Below, piece by piece: positions 10,658-42,504 of a DNA stretch of 64,000 nucleotides (position 1 is its first letter; each line of letters begins with the position of its first letter). The position numbers and the translations under genes were made by a program. The stretch is taken from assembly GCA_041663145.1 (NCBI GenBank), contig JBAZRG010000001.1:254984-318983 (forward strand), written 5' to 3'. Below the pieces are notes generated by a model. It was not told the DNA's origin. It made no database searches and saw only the letters and a list, made by a program, of their open reading frames with translations. This DNA comes from Minisyncoccota bacterium. Its GTDB lineage: Bacteria; Patescibacteriota; Minisyncoccia; Phycocordibacterales; PALSA-1337.

Positions 10658-11086
10658 ATGAATAAGACATCTGTTCAAATCGCAATTGTAGCAGTAGCAG
10701 TCATCGTTGGTGGTGCTATCTATTTTAGCGCCCCAAAGACCGAGAATGTAGACGATCAATCAGCAGCAATCATATTATCTACTGACCCAAAGATTCAACG
10801 CCTATACCCTTATGAATTCACCGCTTACCTCCAAAGCGGAGATGTAACCGTGATTGACATCAGAACTCCTGAAGAATTCGATGGTGGACATATTGAGAAT
10901 GCAGTAAACCTCGATTTCTACTCTCCTGAATTCAAGGACAACCTTTCGACTTTGGACAAAAACAAAAAGTATGCGATCTACTGCAGATCTGGCGCCAGAA
11001 GCGAAGAGACTCTCACAATCATGAAAGACCTCGGCTTTATGGATGTTGCCGATCTTATTGGCGGACTAGAAAGTATCCAACAGTAA
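10658..11086 (+). CDS. rhodanese-domain sulfurtransferase, membrane-anchored
   Basis: 142 aa; rhodanese active-site pattern (YCRSGARS), N-terminal TM helix. Confidence 0.75.
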   Translation: MNKTSVQIAIVAVAVIVGGAIYFSAPKTENVDDQSAAIILSTDPKIQRLYPYEFTAYLQSGDVTVIDIRTPEEFDGGHIENAVNLDFYSPEFKDNLSTLDKNKKYAIYCRSGARSEETLTIMKDLGFMDVADLIGGLESIQQ

Positions 11087-11089
11087 CAA

Positions 11090-12064
11090 TTATTCTTCAT
11101 CGTTCCCTGCCTTTCCAGTCTTCTCATACTCGTGCAAGGCTTCGATGATCGGCGTTAATTTTCCAGACATGATGATTGGAAGATTGTGCCATGATTGCTT
11201 GATCCTATGATCGGTAATACGGTCTTGGGGATAATTGTACGTGCGTATTTTCTCTGATCTATCACCAGTACCGATCTGACCTTTGCGATTCGAAGCAAAT
11301 TTCTTGGCTTCCTCCTCCTCTTTGCGGGCCGCCAATTTCGCGACCAAAATCTCCATTGCCCTTTCGCGATTGGCTGATTGACTACGCTGAACTGTCGAGC
11401 GCACATCTAGACCGGTCGGTATATGAATGATTCTAACGGCAGATTCGACTTTGTTCACATTCTGACCACCCTTTCCACCCGATCTAGAAAATTCCATTTC
11501 AAATTCGGCTGGATTGATCTCAAAAGCCACTTTCTTTCTGATTGGCATAATGGCTATCGAAGCCGTTGAGGTATGTATACGGCCTGACTTTTCCGTCTCT
11601 GGTACACGTTGAACACGATGCACACCTGTCTCCCAGCGAAGATCGTCATAAACACCAACACCCTTGATCTCAAGTGAAGCGTCTTTGTAACCGCCAATAT
11701 CATTTCTCGATGATTCGGTTATTTTTGCTGACCAGCCTTTCGATTCGGCATATGCCTTGTACATCTCCAACAGCTCAGCCGCGAACAAAGCGGCTTCATC
11801 GCCACCGGCTCCGGCTCGAACTTCCAAAATTATTTCTTTGGGATTTTCTATCTCTTCTTTCTCACCTTCAACGATGGCTGATATTTGTTCTTCCAAATTT
11901 TTCTTTTGCTCCAAAATAGAGACAAGATCACTTTCTACCAACTCCTTTAGTGAAGGATCCTTTTCCAACATAGCACGAACTTCATTCTCGTCCTTAACGA
12001 GCTTTTCATACAAACCGACTAGAAAAGCGGTTTTCGGGTTTGATTTATGGAGTTCAATATTCAT
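11090..12064 (-). CDS. prfA: peptide chain release factor 1
   Basis: 324 aa; GGQ motif, RF1-type tripeptide region (QRVPETEKSGRIHTS). Confidence 0.85.
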   Translation of the reverse strand: MNIELHKSNPKTAFLVGLYEKLVKDENEVRAMLEKDPSLKELVESDLVSILEQKKNLEEQISAIVEGEKEEIENPKEIILEVRAGAGGDEAALFAAELLEMYKAYAESKGWSAKITESSRNDIGGYKDASLEIKGVGVYDDLRWETGVHRVQRVPETEKSGRIHTSTASIAIMPIRKKVAFEINPAEFEMEFSRSGGKGGQNVNKVESAVRIIHIPTGLDVRSTVQRSQSANRERAMEILVAKLAARKEEEEAKKFASNRKGQIGTGDRSEKIRTYNYPQDRITDHRIKQSWHNLPIIMSGKLTPIIEALHEYEKTGKAGNDEE

Positions 12065-12319
12065 CTACTTCTTTGCTTTTGACTGTCTAGTTTTGAATTT
12101 CTCAACACGTCCGGCTGTGTCGATCGTCTTGTCCTGTTTTGTGTAGAAAGGATGAGAAGCACTGGAGATTTCGATGCGATGAATAGGATATTCTTTGCCG
12201 TCAGTCCACTTTTCTGTGCCTTTGGTCACGATAGTCGAAGGTATCATAAATTTTACACCGCTAGAGTTATCTGCGAATATGACTGGCCTATAGTTTTCCG
12301 GATGAATCTTTTTCTTCAT
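12065..12319 (-). CDS. rpmE: 50S ribosomal protein L31
   Basis: 84 aa; MKKKIHPENY...HPFYT pattern; directly upstream of prfA. Confidence 0.85.
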   Translation of the reverse strand: MKKKIHPENYRPVIFADNSSGVKFMIPSTIVTKGTEKWTDGKEYPIHRIEISSASHPFYTKQDKTIDTAGRVEKFKTRQSKAKK

Positions 12320-12382
12320 AATGTTAACAAATTACCATATTCTGCAGTACTTTTGCAAGTCTGTTATAATATAGGGACGAAT

Positions 12383-13561
12383 ATGCACATTACATCTACA
12401 AGAGTTTCCCGCTCTCATATTATTTACACCATAGCAGCAATCGGTTTTATATACGTTCTACATTCAGCTATTCCTATATATTCGAACTCTAGTTTCCTAC
12501 AATTATTCGCTAATGAGTGGACTGTCGGCCTCATATATATGGTCGGCTCGGCTTTTTCGATTTTAGGTTTTATCATCGCGCCAACTATGATTCGCCGTTT
12601 TGGCAATTACAAAACCGCCATATTTCTAGTCTGTCTACAGATATTCCTAATGTACGGACTTATAAGTTCGATCAGTCCGTATGCTATTGCTTTATTCTTT
12701 GCTTTACAGATGGCAGTCATTTCACTTATTGGATTGACTATAGACATATTCCTTGAAGTTTACACTGACGCTTCATCTGTAGGAGCTGTCCGAGGATTCC
12801 ATACTGCTGTCCTAAATGCATCATGGGTCTTGGCTCCACTTATCGGCTCTCTCTTGCTAAACGGCACCAACAATTATCACAGTACCTATGTTGCCGCTTT
12901 GGCCATGCTCTTCCCTTTGCTCTATCTTATTTATCGAAATTTCCCGAGGTTCAAAGACCCAAACTATACACATCTCTCGCCTTGGCAATTAATAAAACAT
13001 ATTTCTTCAAACACAGATTGGACTAAACTATTTGCAGCCAACGTAATTCTCCAAACATTCTATTCTTGGATGGTCATATACAGTCCGATATATCTAAATA
13101 AGACTATCGGCTTTGGTTGGGCGGAAATCGGTATTATATTCGTGGTCATGCTCATACCTTTCCCACTCATCCAATATCCACTTGGACTCTTGGCTGATCG
13201 AAAATACGGCGAAAAAGAAATGCTAGCAATCGGTTTTGCTATTATGGGTATAACAACGATGTTTTTGTCCTTGGTCACAGTGAGTTCCGTCGTTCTGTGG
13301 GCATCTCTACTCCTGCTCACTAGGATCGGTGCGGCATCGGCCGAGATAATGATGGAAGTTTACTTTTTCAAAACTGTTCCAACCCGAGATTCGTCTGTCT
13401 TGGGTTCGTTCCGCATCACTCGACCAGTTTCGTATTTTCTAGCACCTTTGATCATGATGATCGGTCTTCTATTCACAACTGATCAATACATGTTCGTGGT
13501 TATTGGAGCAATGTGTCTAGTCGGACTGATCCCGGCACTTACGATAAAGGATACGAGATGA
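12383..13561 (+). CDS. MFS transporter
   Basis: About 12 TM helices; start placed at Met 78 of the ORF (12383) because the ORF-track start overlaps rpmE; -10-like TGTTATAAT upstream. Confidence 0.7.
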   Translation: MHITSTRVSRSHIIYTIAAIGFIYVLHSAIPIYSNSSFLQLFANEWTVGLIYMVGSAFSILGFIIAPTMIRRFGNYKTAIFLVCLQIFLMYGLISSISPYAIALFFALQMAVISLIGLTIDIFLEVYTDASSVGAVRGFHTAVLNASWVLAPLIGSLLLNGTNNYHSTYVAALAMLFPLLYLIYRNFPRFKDPNYTHLSPWQLIKHISSNTDWTKLFAANVILQTFYSWMVIYSPIYLNKTIGFGWAEIGIIFVVMLIPFPLIQYPLGLLADRKYGEKEMLAIGFAIMGITTMFLSLVTVSSVVLWASLLLLTRIGAASAEIMMEVYFFKTVPTRDSSVLGSFRITRPVSYFLAPLIMMIGLLFTTDQYMFVVIGAMCLVGLIPALTIKDTR

Positions 13562-13571
13562 GAGTATCGTA

Positions 13572-13740
13572 ACCCCCCCCCACCACACCTTAATTTGTTT
13601 TCCTCGAACTCTACTCACAATATACCAACATTTTCACAAAGGACTCTCTACAGGGATTCGCGAGTCCTTTGGAAAATGTGTTGGTATATTGTTTCGCAGA
13701 TTATTCTCGGAATACAAATTAAGATGTGGTGGGGGGGTTA
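13572..13740. repeat. about 170 bp nested imperfect palindrome with 27 bp terminal inverted repeats (poly-C / poly-G ends)
   Basis: AACCCCCCCCCACCACACCTTAATTTGT ... ACAAATTAAGATGTGGTGGGGGGGTT; internal perfect 22 bp IR (CCAACATTTTCACAAAGGACTC/GAGTCCTTTGGAAAATGTGTTGG). Confidence 0.7.
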
Positions 13741-13795
13741 ATTCACATTCAATAGAAACAAACCTCATGCTATAATAATCGCTATTAAATCATAA

Positions 13796-15094
<1,299 letters not shown>

Positions 15095-15315
15095 ATCACA
15101 ATCCACAACTTATACCGAGTTATGAACAGTTTATCCAGAGAATTATCCAGAATTTTTGTTTGACTTTTTATCTCACTCGACTAAACTGACTACAGGCACA
15201 CTTACAGGAGAGGATCCTAAATATCCATATAGGAGTCCACAACAATGCGACCTAGTCGCTTCAGGACACCACCTACAATTTCGCGATTACTCTCCATGTA
15301 CCGGTGGCCATTATG

Positions 15316-15347
15316 GCAAAACATCCCGCTTCGGCGGGATGTTTTGC
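15316..15347. other. 12-13 bp stem with UUCG tetraloop inside GC-rich non-coding region
   Basis: GCAAAACATCCCGC-TTCG-GCGGGATGTTTTGC; no flanking U-run. Confidence 0.5.
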
Positions 15348-15698
15348 GCACGCACCAATTTGCACTAGCTCGCGTTAACCTAAAATACTCCCAATACTAC
15401 ACTGTTGGAGGAGTTTCGGGTGTTGTCGGCTGTGTTGGAGCCGTATTTGGCTGTTTTGCCATGTTATTAAAAGCGGGTTGATTAGCTCCCGCACAGTCGC
15501 GCCTAATTGCGCAACGGAGATGATTATATCATCGGGTCAATATGATCCAGCTTTGCCTCAGAAAATTGACATCTCGTCAAAACGATAGTCCAATTCTGGC
15601 TTCATTTCGTACTCCTACGGCATGATGTAATTTGTCTAAAAATTTCGACATGTCTATATGGTTCCAGTCAATAAATAACGATGGAATATTTATATATA

Positions 15699-19089: not shown

Positions 19090-19187
19090 GAATGTCAGCG
19101 GCTCATTCCATGCCGAGTGGTTAAACCACCAGATTTTTAGGGCTAAGGTCACAGTACACAAAGTGCATAGTAACAAAACCCATAATG

Positions 19188-19634
19188 CTAACTTGCGAAG
19201 CGCAGAGCCGGGCTGGCGTCGGGCCAGCGGCTGATAAGATCGTGCCAGCCTTGGACGACCTTGTCATCGAGCTCGCAGAGATACGGGACTTTGAGGTCGT
19301 CATCGTGGCGACTCATCACAACTCCCTTCCAGCCGCAGACATATTTACTCTTGAAGTATTTCCGAAAAAATACGATGCCTTTCTTTTGGATTTCTTCGAG
19401 ATCGCGCAGTCCCAAACAGGTCTTGAGTATGCCGTTCTTTTTGAGGTAGACATAGAGTTGGTTACCTCCTATTCGCTTATCTTGTTTCTGTTTGTCATGG
19501 AGCCACTGCTCCGTTTTGGTAATGTCAAACTCGGCAGGACCGGTGTTTTCCAACTCCGGATGCATAACCGTCTGCACCCAAACGGGATACGACGGACGAA
19601 TCGATCGATCTACGCAAATAATGGGATCGTTCAT
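19188..19634 (-). CDS. hypothetical protein, GC-rich cassette gene (about 58% GC)
   Basis: 148 aa; AAGGA RBS before ATG; lies downstream of R2 promoter; fully overlapping plus-strand ORF judged a GC artefact. Confidence 0.45.
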   Translation of the reverse strand: MNDPIICVDRSIRPSYPVWVQTVMHPELENTGPAEFDITKTEQWLHDKQKQDKRIGGNQLYVYLKKNGILKTCLGLRDLEEIQKKGIVFFRKYFKSKYVCGWKGVVMSRHDDDLKVPYLCELDDKVVQGWHDLISRWPDASPALRFAS

Positions 19635-19745
19635 TGACTTATCCTTTCTTTGGTTTGTTTTGGTTAAATCTAGCTCTCAAAAGACAAATTTCTACCTTTT
19701 CGGAGCTAGACTTAGCCGTTCTCAATGACCTGATCTTCTGTAATA

Positions 19746-20510: not shown

Positions 20511-20625
20511 TTGTGGTACGAAGTTGGATCCTTTTTGGCATTGAAGACTTTAGCATAAAAGGAAAACCGCATCGATCGAGATGCGGCTTGAAGATTTTAG
20601 CGAGTTCTTCAACTCGGTAGATAAA

Positions 20626-21246
20626 CTACTTGCGACGTTGGAAAATCCAACGGTCGTCAAACCGGGCAGACTGCTCGCTTGGACGAACAAAGGGTTGGTC
20701 ATCCTCGTGTTCGAACCTGATGAGTTCGAAAACACTCGGACGCCGAATTTTGTCGAACAAGGGCTCCATCGCAATCCGGACACACTCGTTTCGCGGCTGA
20801 TCCATGTATTGGAGACGCAATTCCAGTCCAATCTCGGCAGTGCAGAGATCAAGACCCTTCTTGGAAGCCGCCGCATAAAACTGTTGAACAGGGATTCTCT
20901 CGTTGCGGAAGTCGAGACCGACTTCAAGCGGCGAGGCCGAGACCAGTTCGACACAGGTCGGCTGCTTGCACATGGGAAACCGTTTGAGGGTAACCATGTC
21001 GAGCGCGTCCGATGTCAGGCCGCATTTGGCGAAGTTAAGGGCCGCGAGCAGTTCGCCAATGGTCTGAAATCTGCCAATCTTGACGTGGCGTCCAATACGG
21101 TCCCACAAGGACCATGCGGGTGCCGGAAAGCTATCTGTTACAAAAGCTTTTCCGGAAAGGAGTTTCTCAACTCCTTCGAGGCCGCCGATCATATTGATGA
21201 CCGCTTCCATGCAACCCCAATCCATTTTACCGTATTTCATCTGCAT
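20626..21246 (-). CDS. hypothetical protein, GC-rich cassette gene (about 52% GC)
   Basis: 206 aa; downstream of R3 promoter; alternative plus-strand ORF 20581..21261 cannot be fully excluded. Confidence 0.4.
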   Translation of the reverse strand: MQMKYGKMDWGCMEAVINMIGGLEGVEKLLSGKAFVTDSFPAPAWSLWDRIGRHVKIGRFQTIGELLAALNFAKCGLTSDALDMVTLKRFPMCKQPTCVELVSASPLEVGLDFRNERIPVQQFYAAASKKGLDLCTAEIGLELRLQYMDQPRNECVRIAMEPLFDKIRRPSVFELIRFEHEDDQPFVRPSEQSARFDDRWIFQRRK

Positions 21247-21406
21247 CCTTTCTTCACCTGATAGGTGACGAAATTCGTGCTGCCCGCACGTTGAGGGTGC
21301 CAGAGGACTAACACGTCAGTGTGTTTCGTCATAGCAGAGAATGGCCCAAACGAGCCGCTTTCTGCTATGACGAATGTAAGTAATTTCAATGACCTATACT
21401 GCTACA

Positions 21407-32581: not shown

Positions 32582-32739
32582 TAGGAGCTTAGTGAACATT
32601 GTTCCTCATCTCCTCGCAAGGTCACCCACTCCAAATTGCAACCACATATCAGCAGATGGAACTACTGATATGTGGGCAATTTGTTCGGGGTTCGAATCGC
32701 ATTGCGAGTCGTTTCGGAACAATATTCACTAAGCTCCTA
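32582..32739 (+). ncRNA. S-element copy 1: extended hairpin with conserved 12 nt loop and T-loop-like motif (candidate structured RNA, strand uncertain)
   Basis: Outer 24 bp IR, conserved internal sequences, inner 11 bp stem, loop CAGATGGAACTA; covaries with copy at 50960-51117. Confidence 0.5.
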
Positions 32740-36331: not shown

Positions 36332-37180
36332 ATGAAATCTCTGTTGCGATGGTTAAAAAGAATATTATATTTTGTCTTGGCTATTGTAATTCTTGTCGGA
36401 TGCCTATTCACCATCGTTCATTTTATAACCAAACCATCAAATGATCGTGATTGGAACACAGATCAGAAAACCCTACCTTATGCAGAAATAAACAACAATC
36501 TGATATCGGTTTACAATATCAGGAATTTCTCATACGCCTCAACGACAAGTTATATGCCGAATTACTACGATAAAGTGTTTGATTTGAATAAACTGAAAAA
36601 AGTTTGGTACATAGTGGAACCATTTTCAGGTATACCTGGTTCAGCTCACACATTTTTGAGTTTTGAATTTGAGGACAATCGGTTTATTTCCATATCAGTC
36701 GAAATCCGTAAGGAAAAAGGCGAAGCGTATAGTCCAGTCAAGGGTCTCTTCAATAAATACGAGCTAATGTATGTAGTGGCTGACGAAAATGATGTCGTCA
36801 AACTTCGCTCAAACTATCGTAAGGATCTGGTATATGTTTATCCAGCAAAAGCGACAGTCGAAAAGGCCCGCGCTTTATTCTTGGACATGATAGAGCGAGT
36901 AAATGATCTTAGAGATCACCCTGAATTTTATAATACGATCACAAACACTTGTACCACAAATATCGTAAAACATATCGATAAAATTACTCCCAATAGAGTG
37001 CCTTTATTCAATCTGCGTATTCTCTTGCCAGCGAACTCTGACAAGCTCGCATATGAGCTCGACCTCATTGATACTGACCTCCCTTTTGAAGAAGCTCGTT
37101 TGCGATACTTTATAAACAATCGTGCCATGAAATACGCTGACGATCCTGATTTTTCTGTAAAGATCAGACAGGGAAAATAA
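36332..37180 (+). CDS. hypothetical membrane-anchored exported protein (possibly DUF4105/Lnb-N-like)
   Basis: 282 aa; N-terminal TM then soluble domain. Confidence 0.35.
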   Translation: MKSLLRWLKRILYFVLAIVILVGCLFTIVHFITKPSNDRDWNTDQKTLPYAEINNNLISVYNIRNFSYASTTSYMPNYYDKVFDLNKLKKVWYIVEPFSGIPGSAHTFLSFEFEDNRFISISVEIRKEKGEAYSPVKGLFNKYELMYVVADENDVVKLRSNYRKDLVYVYPAKATVEKARALFLDMIERVNDLRDHPEFYNTITNTCTTNIVKHIDKITPNRVPLFNLRILLPANSDKLAYELDLIDTDLPFEEARLRYFINNRAMKYADDPDFSVKIRQGK

Positions 37181-37257
37181 ATTCCGTGATATTTATTCAA
37201 CTATACACTCTGCCGTAGAATGCACCATTTTCTCTCCAAATTACGTATAATAGGTGT

Positions 37258-37665
37258 ATGAATAAAAAAACATTATTTTTTGGTGCGGTGATAATCATCA
37301 TTCTTATAGGTATTTATCTTGTCTTTAGGACAGGCGACATTCCAACCGATTCCGCCCTAGATACAAACAATCAAAATAGCTCGAGTACGGAGCAATCAGT
37401 TACACAACAATCAGATATTCAGGAATCAGAATACACACTTGCGATTGTCAGTTCTCATAATACCAATCAGAATTGTTGGATGGTAATTGATAATAAAGTA
37501 TATGATGTCACCTCCTATATTGCATCTGGCCAGCACAATAAAGATATATCAAAAGGTTGTGGCATCGATGCCACATCAATGTTCGATAAAGAAAGAAAAC
37601 ATCAAGACAACAAGGCTCAAAATCTACTGAGTGGACTTGAGATTGGCACTCTAAAAATAAATTAA
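37258..37665 (+). CDS. membrane-anchored cytochrome b5-like domain protein
   Basis: 135 aa; core YTLAIVSSHNTNQNCWMVIDNKVYDVTSYIASGQHNKD...ATSMFDKERKH aligns to cyt b5 fold (HPGG replaced by SGQHN). Confidence 0.5.
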   Translation: MNKKTLFFGAVIIIILIGIYLVFRTGDIPTDSALDTNNQNSSSTEQSVTQQSDIQESEYTLAIVSSHNTNQNCWMVIDNKVYDVTSYIASGQHNKDISKGCGIDATSMFDKERKHQDNKAQNLLSGLEIGTLKIN

Positions 37666-38856
37666 ATGTTTCAATTATCCGATTTGCTTTATGATATTGG
37701 AAAATGGATGGGTATTGCCGGTTTTATTCTTTTGACCTTGCTTATTTTTTCTGGAGATACAGCCAGATTTTGGGATAGATATATCGGACTGGATAAGATT
37801 ATAAAATTCCAAAAGAAATTCTCGTACTTTGTCGCCTTTTTTGTCATCTTACATCCTCTTTTATTTATAATAGCTAGGAAGACCGTATTTGGATTTCTAA
37901 TTCCGAATTTTTCATATGTACCGCTGGCACTTGGGATCATATCTCTCTATATATTCATCGTGGTCATGATCGCCTCGTACTTTTATAAAAGGATTTCAAA
38001 TCTGGTTTGGCAATATATACATGTACTGACATACATACTGTTTTTCTTTTCAATCTATCACGCATTCAATTGGGGATCAGACAGGGATGATTTCATCCTC
38101 ATTTACGTAGTGTCTCTGATCATGATATTAATCGGGATAATATACAGAACTCAATACAAAATTAGAAACAAAATATCAAATGCCTTCACGGTCGACAGTA
38201 TCAAACAAGAAACATCTGATACGTATACCTTGAATCTAAAAAGCAAAAAACCATTTGATTTCAAAGCTGGTCAGTTTTGTTTTTTGAGAATAAACAAGAA
38301 TAGACTTTATGCGAGACATCCATTTACGGTTTCAAGCGCGCCGAATGATAACGTCACTTCATTCACGATCAAACATGCTGGAAGGTTCACAGAGACGGCG
38401 AGGACTCTCAAGACTGGTGAAAAAATATCAGTCGAAGGACCTTTTGGTGTCTTCATTCCGAAACCTGACAAAGATCTGGTATTTATCGCCGGTGGTGTCG
38501 GGATAACACCCTTTATGAGTATTTTGAAAGATAGGATAAATAATAATTCAAATCAAAACATCACTCTCATTTATTGTTCCCGCGGAAAAGATGACATAAT
38601 CTTCAAAAATGAAATTGATTCTATAAACAAGAGCTGGTTCAAGAAAATCTATGTGTTGAATAGTACGGACGGCGCTCTATTCCCTTGCGAACAAGGATAT
38701 ATCTCCAATAAAATAATAGAAAAATACGTCAACAACATCCAAAATTCCCTTTACTATATCTGCGGTCCTGAAAAGATGAAGAATTCAGCCAAAAAGATTC
38801 TTGGAGATTTGAAGGTGGATAAGAGCAGTATTTTTACGGAAGATTTCTTTTGGTAA
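37666..38856 (+). CDS. ferric reductase/NOX-family flavocytochrome (ferric-reductase TM domain + FAD-binding + NAD(P)-binding)
   Basis: 396 aa; 6 TM with paired His, HPFTVSS (FAD RxYS-like), GGVGITPFMSIL (NAD-binding GGxGxxP), C-terminal CGPEKM. Confidence 0.7.
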   Translation: MFQLSDLLYDIGKWMGIAGFILLTLLIFSGDTARFWDRYIGLDKIIKFQKKFSYFVAFFVILHPLLFIIARKTVFGFLIPNFSYVPLALGIISLYIFIVVMIASYFYKRISNLVWQYIHVLTYILFFFSIYHAFNWGSDRDDFILIYVVSLIMILIGIIYRTQYKIRNKISNAFTVDSIKQETSDTYTLNLKSKKPFDFKAGQFCFLRINKNRLYARHPFTVSSAPNDNVTSFTIKHAGRFTETARTLKTGEKISVEGPFGVFIPKPDKDLVFIAGGVGITPFMSILKDRINNNSNQNITLIYCSRGKDDIIFKNEIDSINKSWFKKIYVLNSTDGALFPCEQGYISNKIIEKYVNNIQNSLYYICGPEKMKNSAKKILGDLKVDKSSIFTEDFFW

Positions 38857-38883
38857 GATAGTGTTTATTATTGTTTTTTCTTC

Positions 38884-39897
38884 TTGACCTCGCTGAAAAA
38901 TGGTAAAATTACTTCCATGAAAGAAACGAGAAATATTATCATGTATGAATCGTCAGACAGCACATTAAAGCTGGAAGTGCCTATTGACGGTGAAACTGTA
39001 TGGCTATCTCAAAAGCAGATGGCTGAGCTTTTTGGTTGTACATCGGAGAATATCATTATTCATCTGAAAAATATCTACGATAGCGGTGAATTGACAGAAA
39101 AAGCAACTACTAAGGAATCCTTAGTAGTTCAAAAAGAAGGAAATAGAAGCGTAAAACGGGATATTCAGATATACAATCTTGATGCCATCATTTCACTTGG
39201 CTATCGCGTCAATTCAATTCGCGGCACACAATTTCGTATCTGGGCTACCAATAAATTGAAGGAGTATATTATCAAAGGTTTCGTGTTGGATGATGAAAGA
39301 TTGGCCGATGGTAAGAAGTCTAGATATTTCGACGAACTTCTTGAACGCATCAGAGCTATCCGCTCCAGTGAGCGAAATTTCTATCAAAAGATCACCGATA
39401 TATATGCAACTAGCGTTGACTATAACAAGGATGTAGAAACAACCAAAATGTTCTTTGCTACAATTCAAAACAAAATACATTTTGCTGTACACGGACATAC
39501 AGCAGCGGAGATCGTTTCCACACGCGCCGACGCAGGAAAAAAATACATGGGATTAACTAACTTCAAAGGTAAGATGGTACGGGAAAAAGACATTTCCATT
39601 GCCAAGAATTATCTGAATGAGGAAGAATTGAAACAACTCAACCTCATTGTTACCCTCTATCTAGACTTTGCCGAACTGCAAGCGAGTAATCGTCGAGCTA
39701 TGACTATGAAAGAATGGGTATCCAAACTAGATGATTTTCTGAAATTGAGCGAGAAACAAATCCTCTCTGGTGCCGGCAAGGTCAGCAAGGAAAAAGCTGA
39801 AGAAAAGGCGCGGAAGGAGTACGAAAAATATCGAAAGACTGAAGATGCGGCTTATATCTCTGATTTCGACAGACAAACGAAAAAATATTTGAAATAA
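38884..39897 (+). CDS. RhuM-family virulence/DNA-binding protein (COG3943)
   Basis: 337 aa; N-terminal region matches RhuM family; true start may be Met12 or Met20. Confidence 0.7.
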   Translation: MTSLKNGKITSMKETRNIIMYESSDSTLKLEVPIDGETVWLSQKQMAELFGCTSENIIIHLKNIYDSGELTEKATTKESLVVQKEGNRSVKRDIQIYNLDAIISLGYRVNSIRGTQFRIWATNKLKEYIIKGFVLDDERLADGKKSRYFDELLERIRAIRSSERNFYQKITDIYATSVDYNKDVETTKMFFATIQNKIHFAVHGHTAAEIVSTRADAGKKYMGLTNFKGKMVREKDISIAKNYLNEEELKQLNLIVTLYLDFAELQASNRRAMTMKEWVSKLDDFLKLSEKQILSGAGKVSKEKAEEKARKEYEKYRKTEDAAYISDFDRQTKKYLK

Positions 39898-39901
39898 GAT
39901 A

Positions 39902-39927
39902 TGTCCACTTTATGGGGTACGGATCAA
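39902..39927 (+). repeat. direct repeat DR-L of GC-rich mini-island (TGTCCACTTTATGGGGTACGGATCAA)
   Basis: 25/26 identical to 42028-42053. Confidence 0.75.
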
Positions 39928-40042
39928 AGATGGACCGTGTCCGCCGTAGCTACGCCATTACTATAAAAAAGTGACCCTCTTTCAGCTTTCGCTTACTCAA
40001 GGGTCACGTGTCTAAAGAACCAACCACTTCAACTGCTACGGT

Positions 40043-40435
40043 TTATGTAGACAGCTCCCCAGGTTCGAACTTGCTCTCATACTGAGGACGAATCCAAATC
40101 GAAGGGACGAGTGTGTCAATGCGGTTTCTCGAAAGAAATTCAACGAAGCTGTGGCGAATTTCAACGAGTGCTGCAGCCTTTTCATCTTCACCAGGGTTGA
40201 AAGGTTTTCCTGTGCCGTATTCGTCTTCACCGGCAGTGTATAGGACCTCGATCTGTACGGGTGCCTCATTGGCCGTGTACCGTACATCGAAGACGTCGAA
40301 TGCGACATCCTCCTTCCCTTCGATACCGAATATGGCTTCGACCGTGGCAATAAGGCTTCGAGACAAATCATCGAATGTCTCATCGATGATCATGTTCGCA
40401 GCCAAACGGTTGAGGTATACCTTGATCTGTGGCAT
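40043..40435 (-). CDS. tautomerase-family-like small acidic protein (GC-rich)
   Basis: 131 aa from Met175 of the ORF; MPQIKVYLNR... N-terminal Pro pattern; the upstream part of the 304-aa ORF is a Cys/His/Arg-rich GC artefact. Confidence 0.4.
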   Translation of the reverse strand: MPQIKVYLNRLAANMIIDETFDDLSRSLIATVEAIFGIEGKEDVAFDVFDVRYTANEAPVQIEVLYTAGEDEYGTGKPFNPGEDEKAAALVEIRHSFVEFLSRNRIDTLVPSIWIRPQYESKFEPGELST

Positions 40436-40461
40436 TACTGATTCCTTTCTTTGGTTGAGGG

Positions 40462-41073
40462 TTAAATCCAATCCATGACCGGCGACTTCTTGCGAAACCG
40501 ATAGACACAGAGTGGAACGGTTATGCAGAAACTCCCGACTGTCATGTAGATTGGCAAAATCAGATTCGCAAGCGTGAAATCGGAAATCGCAAAGAAGTTC
40601 AAGCTGTAGGCGACGGAGAAGAATCCCCACGCAAACGGCCTGTCTTGATCCGGCGACTTCCAAAGAAACGCTATGGTCGGAAGACATGCGAAGCTGTCGG
40701 CAACTATGGCTACATACAACGCGTATTGAACAAGGTCCTTGCTCTCCCTCATAAACAGCCACATCACTAAAGAAATGATGCCGAAGATAAGACAGACAAT
40801 ATCTAACTTGTTCAACTTTGTTCGCTCGTACTGCCGTTTGAAGGCAATAAGAGTGACAATGAGCGGATTCGTGAATCCGAACACCGCAGCCCAGACGTTT
40901 GCTTTTGCGCCGGAGCTTTTGTAAGTCAGGAGCAATGCGAGACCTATGAAAGTCCACAAACTCCAGCTCGTAATGTTCGGATGAACCTTCTTCTGGTAAG
41001 TCCGAATCGCGTAAGGTATTACACTTACAACGATCAGAATGCCGGAAATCAGTCCGATTAATTCTTTGTCCAA
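40462..41073 (-). CDS. hypothetical 6-TM membrane protein
   Basis: 203 aa; six hydrophobic helices. Confidence 0.45.
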   Translation of the reverse strand: MDKELIGLISGILIVVSVIPYAIRTYQKKVHPNITSWSLWTFIGLALLLTYKSSGAKANVWAAVFGFTNPLIVTLIAFKRQYERTKLNKLDIVCLIFGIISLVMWLFMRESKDLVQYALYVAIVADSFACLPTIAFLWKSPDQDRPFAWGFFSVAYSLNFFAISDFTLANLILPIYMTVGSFCITVPLCVYRFRKKSPVMDWI

Positions 41074-41208
41074 GGATTGCTCCCTTCTTGGTTAATTGTT
41101 TTATTGTGAAGAGCTGAAACTCTTAGGGGCACGACATCTCTGTCATGATCCCAGTTGAGTGGAGGATTGTAAATGGAACACAATCCTCCTTTATGAAACC
41201 GAAACGTA

Positions 41209-41880
41209 TCAGTTTGCCCGCACAATGGTATAGGGGTAATAACCAATTGTTGAATCAGTACCCCATGCTTCCAGGGTGCAGTCTCGCAGGGTAGCATTAT
41301 CGCCGAAATAGAGACAGCGATATTCTTTCTGCATCCCCAGATGGGTCGAATATGGTCCCCAAACGGGAAACTTTCCCTTGAAGACAAACAATACGCCACT
41401 GTCGCCGAGTCTCGTAGGACCATTCGTTGAAACAAGCCGTTCAACCTCTTGCTTCAGGAATGCCAGCGTCTCATCGTCGGTTGCAGTCTTGTACCACTCG
41501 AAGTTGGTCGTCGTGATATCAATCCTGATAAGGACCCTGTTGAAGTTTTCCACGAAGACCATTTGAAGAGGCCGCCCACGGAAGTTTCCGTAGGTGATGA
41601 TCGTGTCATCTCCATCGTGTGCAATGCCGTGTTGAAAAACAGCCGGAGGCATCTGGGGGACATTCGGTCCTTTGACACGATTGAATGCTTCCGAACTACT
41701 TGAGGTGTCCTCGAGCTGAGGCGGCCAGTGCAATTTTTCCAGAGCAACGTATCTCCGTTCCGATGCGGCCAATTGCCTCTCAAGCGAGTCGGCTCGATTT
41801 TTAAATGAGAGTGCGGCACCCAATGACACCGCGATTGCTGCAACGAATGCTATGACTACCAATTTTTGTGTCGTCTTCAT
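41209..41880 (-). CDS. hypothetical secreted protein (GC-rich)
   Basis: 224 aa from Met27; N-terminal signal/TM (MKTTQKLVVIAFVAAIAVSLGAALS). Confidence 0.45.
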   Translation of the reverse strand: MKTTQKLVVIAFVAAIAVSLGAALSFKNRADSLERQLAASERRYVALEKLHWPPQLEDTSSSSEAFNRVKGPNVPQMPPAVFQHGIAHDGDDTIITYGNFRGRPLQMVFVENFNRVLIRIDITTTNFEWYKTATDDETLAFLKQEVERLVSTNGPTRLGDSGVLFVFKGKFPVWGPYSTHLGMQKEYRCLYFGDNATLRDCTLEAWGTDSTIGYYPYTIVRAN

Positions 41881-42027
41881 AACAATGTACTGAGTACTGA
41901 TTTTGTCCGAACCTCCCCTTTTCGAGGGTACTAAACGGACATTTGTTGAGGTATTCAAATCTGGCGGTATTGTAACAAATTACGTAATGAAAGTCAACCT
42001 CTGTCCAATTTACAGCTTGGAAATCTG

Positions 42028-42053
42028 TGTCCACTTTATGGGGTACAGATCAA
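42028..42053 (+). repeat. direct repeat DR-R of GC-rich mini-island
   Basis: TGTCCACTTTATGGGGTACAGATCAA. Confidence 0.75.
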
Positions 42054-42139
42054 TTGCGGAGGCAATACATAGTCGCTATAGCTCCTTGTATTGCACTCTC
42101 GCAAAATATATTCGTTCGCGTTGCTCACTCATTATTTTG

Positions 42140-42224
42140 CGGAGGGTAAGGGATTCGAACCCTTGGTGGGTTGCCCCACACACGCTTTCCAAGCGTGCGC
42201 ACTAGACCGCTATGCGAACCCTCC
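42140..42224 (-). tRNA. tRNA-Ser (anticodon GGA), class II with long variable arm
   Basis: GGAGGGT acceptor, anticodon loop TTGGAAA, variable arm TGTGGGGCAACCCACC, T-arm AAGGG-TTCGAAT-CCCTT. Confidence 0.8.
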
Positions 42225-42331: not shown

Positions 42332-42504
42332 AGACCCCAACATAATGTTCCCGAAACAATCCGAGTTGCGATTGAGCTTCGAAAAATTACCCGTGTTTGG
42401 TGAAGCCTTGGAACCAAACACGGTTGTAATTTGAGAAGCGATTACGCGATCGAGCACGATCGCCTACTGGGGAGGATTGTGGCGGGAACATTATGTTGGG
42501 GGTC
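42332..42504. mobile_element. MITE copy B (with 26 nt internal palindromic insertion)
   Basis: Same TIRs GACCCCAACATAATGTTCCCG / CGGGAACATTATGTTGGGGGTC. Confidence 0.8.

Follow-up and report, generated by a model that had tools for sequence, protein, structure and literature searches.

A genomic island that a tyrosine integrase has inserted at a tRNA gene lies next to that gene between direct repeats whose core (att) comes from the tRNA 3′ end, has an atypical composition and is missing from relatives; composite transposons and IS26 translocatable units carry cargo between two directly oriented sequences derived from an insertion sequence (IS). IS3-family elements transpose by copy-out/paste-in of the IS alone and are not known to give rise to translocatable units. 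Insertion at a fixed distance and orientation from tRNA genes of many specificities is a property of Ty3 and of the Dictyostelium TRE elements. We analysed a 64-kb stretch of DNA from a Minisyncoccota bacterium (assembly GCA_041663145.1, contig JBAZRG010000001.1, positions 254,984–318,983; hereafter the window), in which a pair of 26-nt direct repeats next to a tRNA-Ser(GGA) gene brackets three minus-strand genes, C, B and A. The locus resembles a tRNA-linked island in its neighbouring tRNA, its direct repeats, its atypical composition and its absence from relatives, and the original prediction had read the repeats as marking the limits, or att sites, of a mini-island that was integrated or mobilized in trans. 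We consider it highly probable that the repeats are instead transposase-less relics of the left end of a tRNA-targeting IS3-family IS of ~1.37 kb, lying in a variable hot spot.

The repeat, TGTCCACTTTATGGGGTAC(G/A)GATCAA, is present at 39902–39927 and 42028–42053, as predicted; the two copies are identical at 25 of 26 positions and differ by G or A at position 20. No further copy occurs in the window at ≤3 mismatches, and a chance origin is ruled out by 100 dinucleotide shuffles, which gave 0 matches (0 expected). A scan of the whole window for inverted repeat (IR) ends of the element described below returned these two sequences, both of the left-end type and in direct orientation; neither has an inverted partner at ≤7 mismatches anywhere in the window. 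A degenerate right end (IRR) between the right copy and the promoter upstream of gene C was also considered and rejected (none at ≤7 mismatches). The window copies therefore do not form the pair of inverted ends, flanked by a target duplication, that a functional IS or miniature inverted-repeat transposable element (MITE) would show. Like composite transposons and IS26 units, the locus has cargo between two direct IS-derived sequences; unlike them, it retains end relics only, both from the same end and facing the same way. Two like ends in direct orientation form no outward-facing pair, and the 2.1-kb segment between them is therefore not a transposase substrate.

The origin of the repeat was traced by scanning its 22-nt core against metagenome contigs, which returned at least 120 stretches (L082–L201), all oriented on the motif; the probe required an intact 22-mer. 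The 22–26-mer is thus found in at least 120 unrelated contigs. The core has 0 matches in 2.9 million viral contigs, on which ground a phage attP identity was rejected. One flank of most matches listed is a tRNA gene 3′ end; the other has, in most, ~30 variable nt, the palindrome TTCTTTTGTTA..TAACAAAAGAA and then the start of a gene encoding MRTxFSxEEIAxLxxNP..., and in a few, instead, the C terminus of a DDE transposase. At 23 or more loci an imperfect inverted copy, TGATCYGTACCCC(A/T)TTTAGTAGACAC, lies 1339–1428 bp away, and these are complete elements, with TGATCYGTACCCC... at one terminus, ...GGGGTACRGATCA at the other, 5′-TG..CA-3′ tips and terminal inverted repeats (TIRs) within the range of 20–40 bp. 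The element measures ~1.37 kb (for example, L175 3672–5040 and L196 2026–3396, in motif-oriented coordinates). Target duplications of 3–4 bp flank many copies (GGCC, TTGG, GCT, GTT, CGG, ATG, TTT and CAGT) and are lacking at some; such duplications and a length between 1.2 and 1.55 kb are both as expected of an IS3-family element. The first gene, orfA, encodes 145 aa with PF20310 HTH_Tnp_2; orfB of the L175 copy matches the NF033516 IS3 family transposase model (258.9 bits against a cutoff of 160, E = 8e-77) as well as rve, rve_2, rve_3 and HTH_21. The two genes stand in a 0/−1 frame relation and overlap around GATTTTTTAGC, at a T-rich slippery stretch where programmed −1 frameshifting might join them. 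An IS3-type DDE transposase is thus encoded at related loci and not in the window itself.

Judged from its sequence, the window repeat is the terminal inverted repeat on the orfA side (IRL) of this IS, which is widespread in Paceibacteria/Patescibacteria metagenomes. Full copies resemble IS911, IS2, IS3 and IS150 in their size of 1.34–1.43 kb, imperfect 26-bp TIRs, TG..CA tips, two overlapping open reading frames (ORFs), rve transposase and 3–4-bp duplications; the window differs from such elements in holding just two IRL relics of 26–34 nt and neither a transposase nor an IRR. At other loci listed, relics come in many lengths, some with the operator palindrome kept. Two 44-nt IR–IR palindromes, each made of two overlapping IS ends (L141 3304–3347, with a CAGT target duplication, and L195 61–104), and an internally deleted derivative of 797 bp (L185 690–1486) look like MITE-like non-autonomous forms of the IS. 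In locus L197, two direct IRL copies lie 1 kb apart with a co-oriented tRNA beside each. Many records stop 93–104 nt inside the element; the position of an IS end ~100 nt from so many record ends suggests assembly breakage by a multi-copy repeat, as happens with short reads.

The pattern of tRNA-end targeting by the IS is well supported. At 60 of the 113 listed loci with sufficient flank, a tRNA gene on the matching strand has its 3′ end 0–10 nt (mostly 1–3 nt) from the tip of the IRL, and the tRNA-adjacent IRLs among the loci listed span ~18 amino-acid specificities. A T-loop motif occurs in 72 of 107 distinct flanks, beginning exactly 19 nt from the tip in 49 of the 72 and 18–20 nt from it in 60; the insertion point is 3–4 nt past the discriminator base, whether an encoded CCA is present or not. 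The order among the loci listed is invariant (tRNA, IRL, orfA, orfB, IRR), and no tRNA adjoins the few copies in which the probe matches the IRR. At least 17 tRNA-adjacent copies are solo IRLs. The tRNA-Ser neighbour in the window follows from this preference for tRNA ends, and an integrase is not needed to account for it. At five non-tRNA sites (L100, L108, L129, L173 and L188), the DNA just outside the IS tip shares TGGCGG..GGGACGAA.TTGGAAC, which ARAGORN does not call as a tRNA; these sites may be degenerate tRNA ends or another tRNA-like target.

In its precise, orientation-specific preference for tRNA 3′ ends, the IS behind the relics differs from IS3-family elements as described in the literature that we searched. 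The likeness to Ty3 and TRE is one of behaviour only, as this is a bacterial DDE DNA transposon without Pol III machinery. We tentatively propose, at somewhat less than even confidence, that a Patescibacteria lineage of IS3-family (DDE) elements chooses its targets by reading tRNA genes, co-oriented and at fixed distance, as a counterpart of Ty3 and TRE targeting; the transposase or OrfA might do so by recognizing the DNA of the tRNA gene. If true, this could explain rearrangement hot spots downstream of tRNAs in these tiny genomes, including the one in the window. The literature searched (ISfinder was outside the search) contained no account of IS3-family elements that target tRNA ends, nor of IS elements in Patescibacteria; if undescribed, such targeting would give a tractable system in which to see how a DDE transposase selects its target site. 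The finding at the window is otherwise largely ordinary, and it is the targeting by the IS that is unusual. One practical consequence concerns short perfect repeats near tRNAs in Patescibacteria metagenome-assembled genomes: a comparison with this IS end should come before any assignment as att sites.

The two relics in the window differ in what they retain. The right relic (42020–42053, minus strand) consists of the 26-nt IR and ~8 nt of IS interior (GAAATCTG), with its tip toward tRNA-Ser, and matches the IRL consensus TGATCTGTACCCCATAAAGTGGACAC at 26 of 26 positions. Over the 43 nt of 42020–42062, identity is 97.7% to the junction of IRL and tRNA-Ser, both in L196, which has the full IS, and in the cut-off locus L176. 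The tip abuts ATT-GCGGAGG, in which 9 nt of the tRNA-Ser 3′ end are repeated at the canonical spacing (42054–42062, minus strand; CCTCCGCAA); this is not the tRNA itself. The left relic (39901–39927, minus strand; TTGATCCGTACCCCATAAAGTGGACAT as read on that strand) agrees with the consensus at 24 of 26 positions (2 mismatches), is identical to the copy in the related locus L016 (26/26) and carries the other variant at the polymorphic G/A position. Its IS interior is wholly lost: the inner side lies 4 nt from the stop codon of a RhuM-family gene, and the tip points to the terminator of gene A. Two identities for the flank beyond this tip were considered and rejected, a tRNA end (no T-loop is present) and an abutted IRR (~11/26 matches, counted by eye and not significant).

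The tRNA-Ser(GGA) gene (42139–42224, minus strand; ARAGORN; Rfam RF00005, 55.5 bits) does lie beside the right repeat, at a gap of 85 nt rather than the 90 nt first given, and its RNA family was the only one that Rfam reported in 39.5–42.7 kb. Between the 9-nt copy and the gene is a native trailer of 76 nt (42063–42138, minus strand), homologous in L021, L048 and L058, and it is just this trailer that the 9-nt tRNA-end repeat brackets. A conserved trailer hairpin, CGCAAAATA/TATTTTGCG (42100–42141), overlaps the tRNA 3′ end and shows a compensatory change in L021. That locus has its own 10-nt repeat of the tRNA 3′ end, CTTCTGCAAA, which co-varies with its tRNA, lies 75 nt past tRNA-Ser and has no IR beside it (L021 11460–11800); in L058 (1730–2070), the tRNA-Ser 3′-end repeat is ~19 nt. 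The repeated tRNA 3′ end and the hairpin may be left over from an old integration or may form a trailer structure that has a function.

We compared the neighbourhood with 80 Patescibacteria loci (1.18 Mb) from species-representative genomes, found through the neighbouring HtpX gene and distant from the window (HtpX ≤72% identical). The best match, L002 (HtpX 72%), shares the backbone GroES–GroEL–hypothetical–LemA–HtpX–tRNA-Ser–[...]–DUF1761–DUF192–RNR, and its tRNA is 95% identical to that of the window. Between tRNA-Ser and DUF1761, L002 carries IMPase-like and NUDIX-like genes; it has no IR and none of C, B, A, RhuM or the ferric-reductase-like, cytochrome-b5-like and Lnb genes of the window. 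Homologues of A, B or C are absent from L002, from L016 and from all 80 loci, and an IR-like sequence occurs in 1 of the 80. In L016, from a different Paceibacterota species, 2 nt separate the exact 26-mer from the 3′ end of its own tRNA-Ser(GGA) (71% identical to the window tRNA), and there is no second copy. A ~60-nt stretch that includes the promoter upstream of gene C is ~80% identical in L016 (85% over 40 nt by blastn); because unrelated genes follow it there, the DNA just inside the right relic looks native. In L016, the segment with tRNA-Ser, IR and promoter (10915–15628) is inverted relative to HtpX and holds genes for pilin-like, DedA-like, SEC-C-motif, 173-aa and 239-aa proteins, which is further evidence of a rearrangement hot spot. 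The content downstream of tRNA-Ser differs in every relative examined. L001 is an identical fragment of 1.4 kb.

The genes bracketed by the relics are real ORFs, as predicted, and their composition is foreign. GC content is 47–50% in A, B and C, elevated as claimed, against a window background of 41.8% (s.d. 3.5), not 38%; the neighbouring 35–39 kb stretch alone has 36–39%. GC at third codon positions (GC3) is 0.534 in A, 0.603 in B and 0.540 in C, compared with 0.392 ± 0.057 in 51 other ORFs of the window (z = 2.5–3.7). The GC-rich part starts only at the start codon of gene C. The ORF at 40043–40957, suspected to be an artefact, is indeed gene A with an extension through B in another frame, which is spurious because homologues of A are all ~130 aa and B has >319 homologues of its own. 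A sigma-70-like promoter upstream of gene C (41969–41997, minus strand; TTGACT-17-TACAAT, with TG; 10 of 12 consensus positions) and an intrinsic terminator after gene A (39964–40007, minus strand; 9-bp GC-rich stem, then UUUUUU) suggest, as predicted signals, that C–B–A is a self-contained transcription unit. The 8-bp palindrome noted earlier exists (39971–39978/40000–40007) and is this terminator, with its U6 on the minus strand, not a recombination feature.

Gene A (40043–40435, minus strand; 130 aa; hypothetical protein WC648_01680 in NCBI) is predicted to have a tautomerase-superfamily fold of two beta-alpha-beta units, which bears out the earlier tautomerase-like call at the level of a modelled fold. 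The AF2 model (pLDDT 92; E-H-E/E-H-E) finds the fused 4-OT 6vvm, 4lkb, CHMI, MIF and cis-CaaD by Foldseek against the PDB (E = 8e-6 to 5e-4, probability 1.0, TM-score 0.5–0.66), and the 17 homologues, all of ~130 aa with an MPQ-type start, have Pro after Met1 in 16 of 17; no Pfam family, tautomerase included, matches at E < 0.01. Gene B (40462–41073, minus strand; 203 aa) encodes a predicted membrane protein with 7 transmembrane (TM) helices rather than the 6 first proposed. Its AF2 model (pLDDT 94) is PQ-loop/SWEET/KDEL-receptor-like (Foldseek to cystinosin, KDEL receptor and SWEET, TM-score 0.55–0.63). The >319 homologues of 203 aa across Patescibacteria stand in core contexts, beside gltX; L210 has one such homologue next to gltX (88% protein and 82% DNA identity). 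Gene C (41209–41880, minus strand; 223 aa, with an N-terminal hydrophobic segment) appears to be nearly an orphan, with no matches in Pfam, NCBIfam, PADLOC or PHROG and a single homologue of 43% identity, which another Patescibacteria contig carries with priA on one side and def-fmt on the other. Homologues of gene A occur in eight contigs without B or C; the homologues of the three genes lie apart in unrelated contexts, which rules out a conserved A–B–C module. A defence or phage annotation of the three was also rejected, as PADLOC and PHROGs gave no significant matches; protein B has a weak match to phrog_2642 (unknown function; E = 0.0055).

We propose that the region from tRNA-Ser to DUF1761–DUF192–RNR is a hot spot that gathers acquired patches, of which C–B–A would be one, horizontally acquired. 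The right relic would record one IS copy that inserted at a 3′ end of tRNA-Ser type, and the left relic a second copy, inserted at the junction between GC-rich C–B–A and the AT-rich Lnb–Cytb5–FRE–RhuM block. Deletions would then have removed both ISs except for 26–34 nt, leaving relics that bracket C–B–A by happenstance; the IS copies may also have acted as recombination or rearrangement junctions. As the relics match L016 at 25–26 of 26 positions while the tRNA-Ser genes are 71% identical, and as L002 has no IR, the insertions are probably recent and independent, as a tRNA-targeting IS would lead one to expect. Several observations weigh against this account. The 64-kb window contains no full-length IS or transposase, and its link to the element is 26–34 nt of identity. 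It is not parsimonious that two copies should have decayed independently and both kept an intact IRL. The near-perfect match to L016 despite the diverged tRNA-Ser requires relics that are young, homogenized or constrained; half-decayed copies (16–22/26) were absent among ~160 other tRNAs, a small and ascertainment-biased sample. The flank of the left relic is not recognizable as a tRNA end, and exact-protein look-ups with HtpX, RhuM (from its ATG start) and B recovered no strain-level empty site.

A weaker alternative is a single acquisition through IS homology. Circular or linear DNA carrying C–B–A and one IS would have recombined with a resident IS after tRNA-Ser, by a RecA-mediated or cointegrate-type route as for IS26 translocatable units, to give IS–CBA–IS in direct orientation, so that the direct repeat is a by-product of arrival, and both ISs would have decayed later. 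Such integration yields like ends in direct orientation, the left relic lies exactly at the boundary of two compositionally different blocks, and the IS is multi-copy in these communities. We nevertheless regard this route as unlikely: two later deletions are still needed, the promoter region inside the right relic is common to L016 with other genes and so suggests native DNA, the relics carry different variants (G or A) as different IS copies would, and copy-out/paste-in moves the IS alone. The absence of half-decayed copies could also reflect constraint on the relic itself. Solo IRLs might be kept for a function (as a transposase landing pad, a tRNA trailer or processing signal, or a regulatory site), with the pair bracketing an exchangeable cassette. 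Their perfect conservation while the tRNA diverged by 29% from L016, the bimodal scores downstream of tRNAs (≥23/26 or ≤15/26) and the solo copies beside tRNAs, at least 17 in number, would fit such a role. Because the search demanded an intact 22-mer, however, it biased the sample to intact copies; moreover, an IR-like sequence at a single one of the related loci argues against a general tRNA trailer element, the variable lengths of IS interior retained are as expected from random deletion, and the closest relative, L002, has no relic. We therefore judge a retained function very unlikely.

The least probable reading, to which we give hardly any credence, is the integrase-type island of the original prediction, with the repeats as attL and attR and the integrase lost or acting in trans. 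Such an island would leave the direct repeats near a tRNA, the atypical GC and the absence from relatives that are seen here, and the short self-repeats of the tRNA-Ser(GGA) 3′ end, here and in related genomes, hint at old integrase activity. The 26-mer, however, is not derived from the tRNA 3′ end as an att core would be: it does not overlap the tRNA gene, and it is a DDE transposon terminus that occurs next to >20 different tRNAs and also away from tRNAs, with no viral match and with both window copies facing the same way. L016 has a single copy with unrelated genes. The absence of an integrase, noted from the start, was upheld among the 15 neighbouring ORFs: Pfam was applied to ten of the ORFs at 35.3–43.4 kb, LemA, GroEL, GroES and RNR were identified by homology, and none is a recombinase. 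The preferred reading, two IS relics in a hot spot, replaces a false mini-island with att sites by remnants of IS copies in a variable locus that follows tRNA-Ser, whose content is a foreign three-gene unit (tautomerase-fold, PQ-loop-like membrane and orphan predicted exported proteins) and the candidate defence gene RhuM.

The RhuM-family gene (38884–39897, plus strand), whose family assignment was confirmed by Pfam (PF13310, E = 3e-111), also matches PADLOC PDC-S05 (E = 3e-141), by which it is a candidate defence gene; its start is likely the ATG at 38917. The gene converges on the left relic and ends the AT-rich block at 36332–39897 (Lnb-like, cytochrome-b5-like, ferric-reductase-like and RhuM; 35–39% GC). 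RhuM is also absent from L016, and a homologue of 85% occurs in L086 with no IR adjoining. Elsewhere in the window, the sole other ORFs with GC3 like that of C–B–A are at 19185–19637 (0.556) and 20581–21261 (0.586); they have no Pfam match and lie ~0.7–2.8 kb from a tRNA-Gly(CCC) gene, with no IS end nearby. Two long hairpins, at 32582–32739 and 42335–42501, with arms of 38 and 28 nt, loops of ~82–111 nt and the arm core GAACAT..TGTTCC, lie just downstream of the minus-strand RNR and HtpX genes, respectively, and could be repetitive extragenic palindromic (REP)- or MITE-like elements or long terminators.

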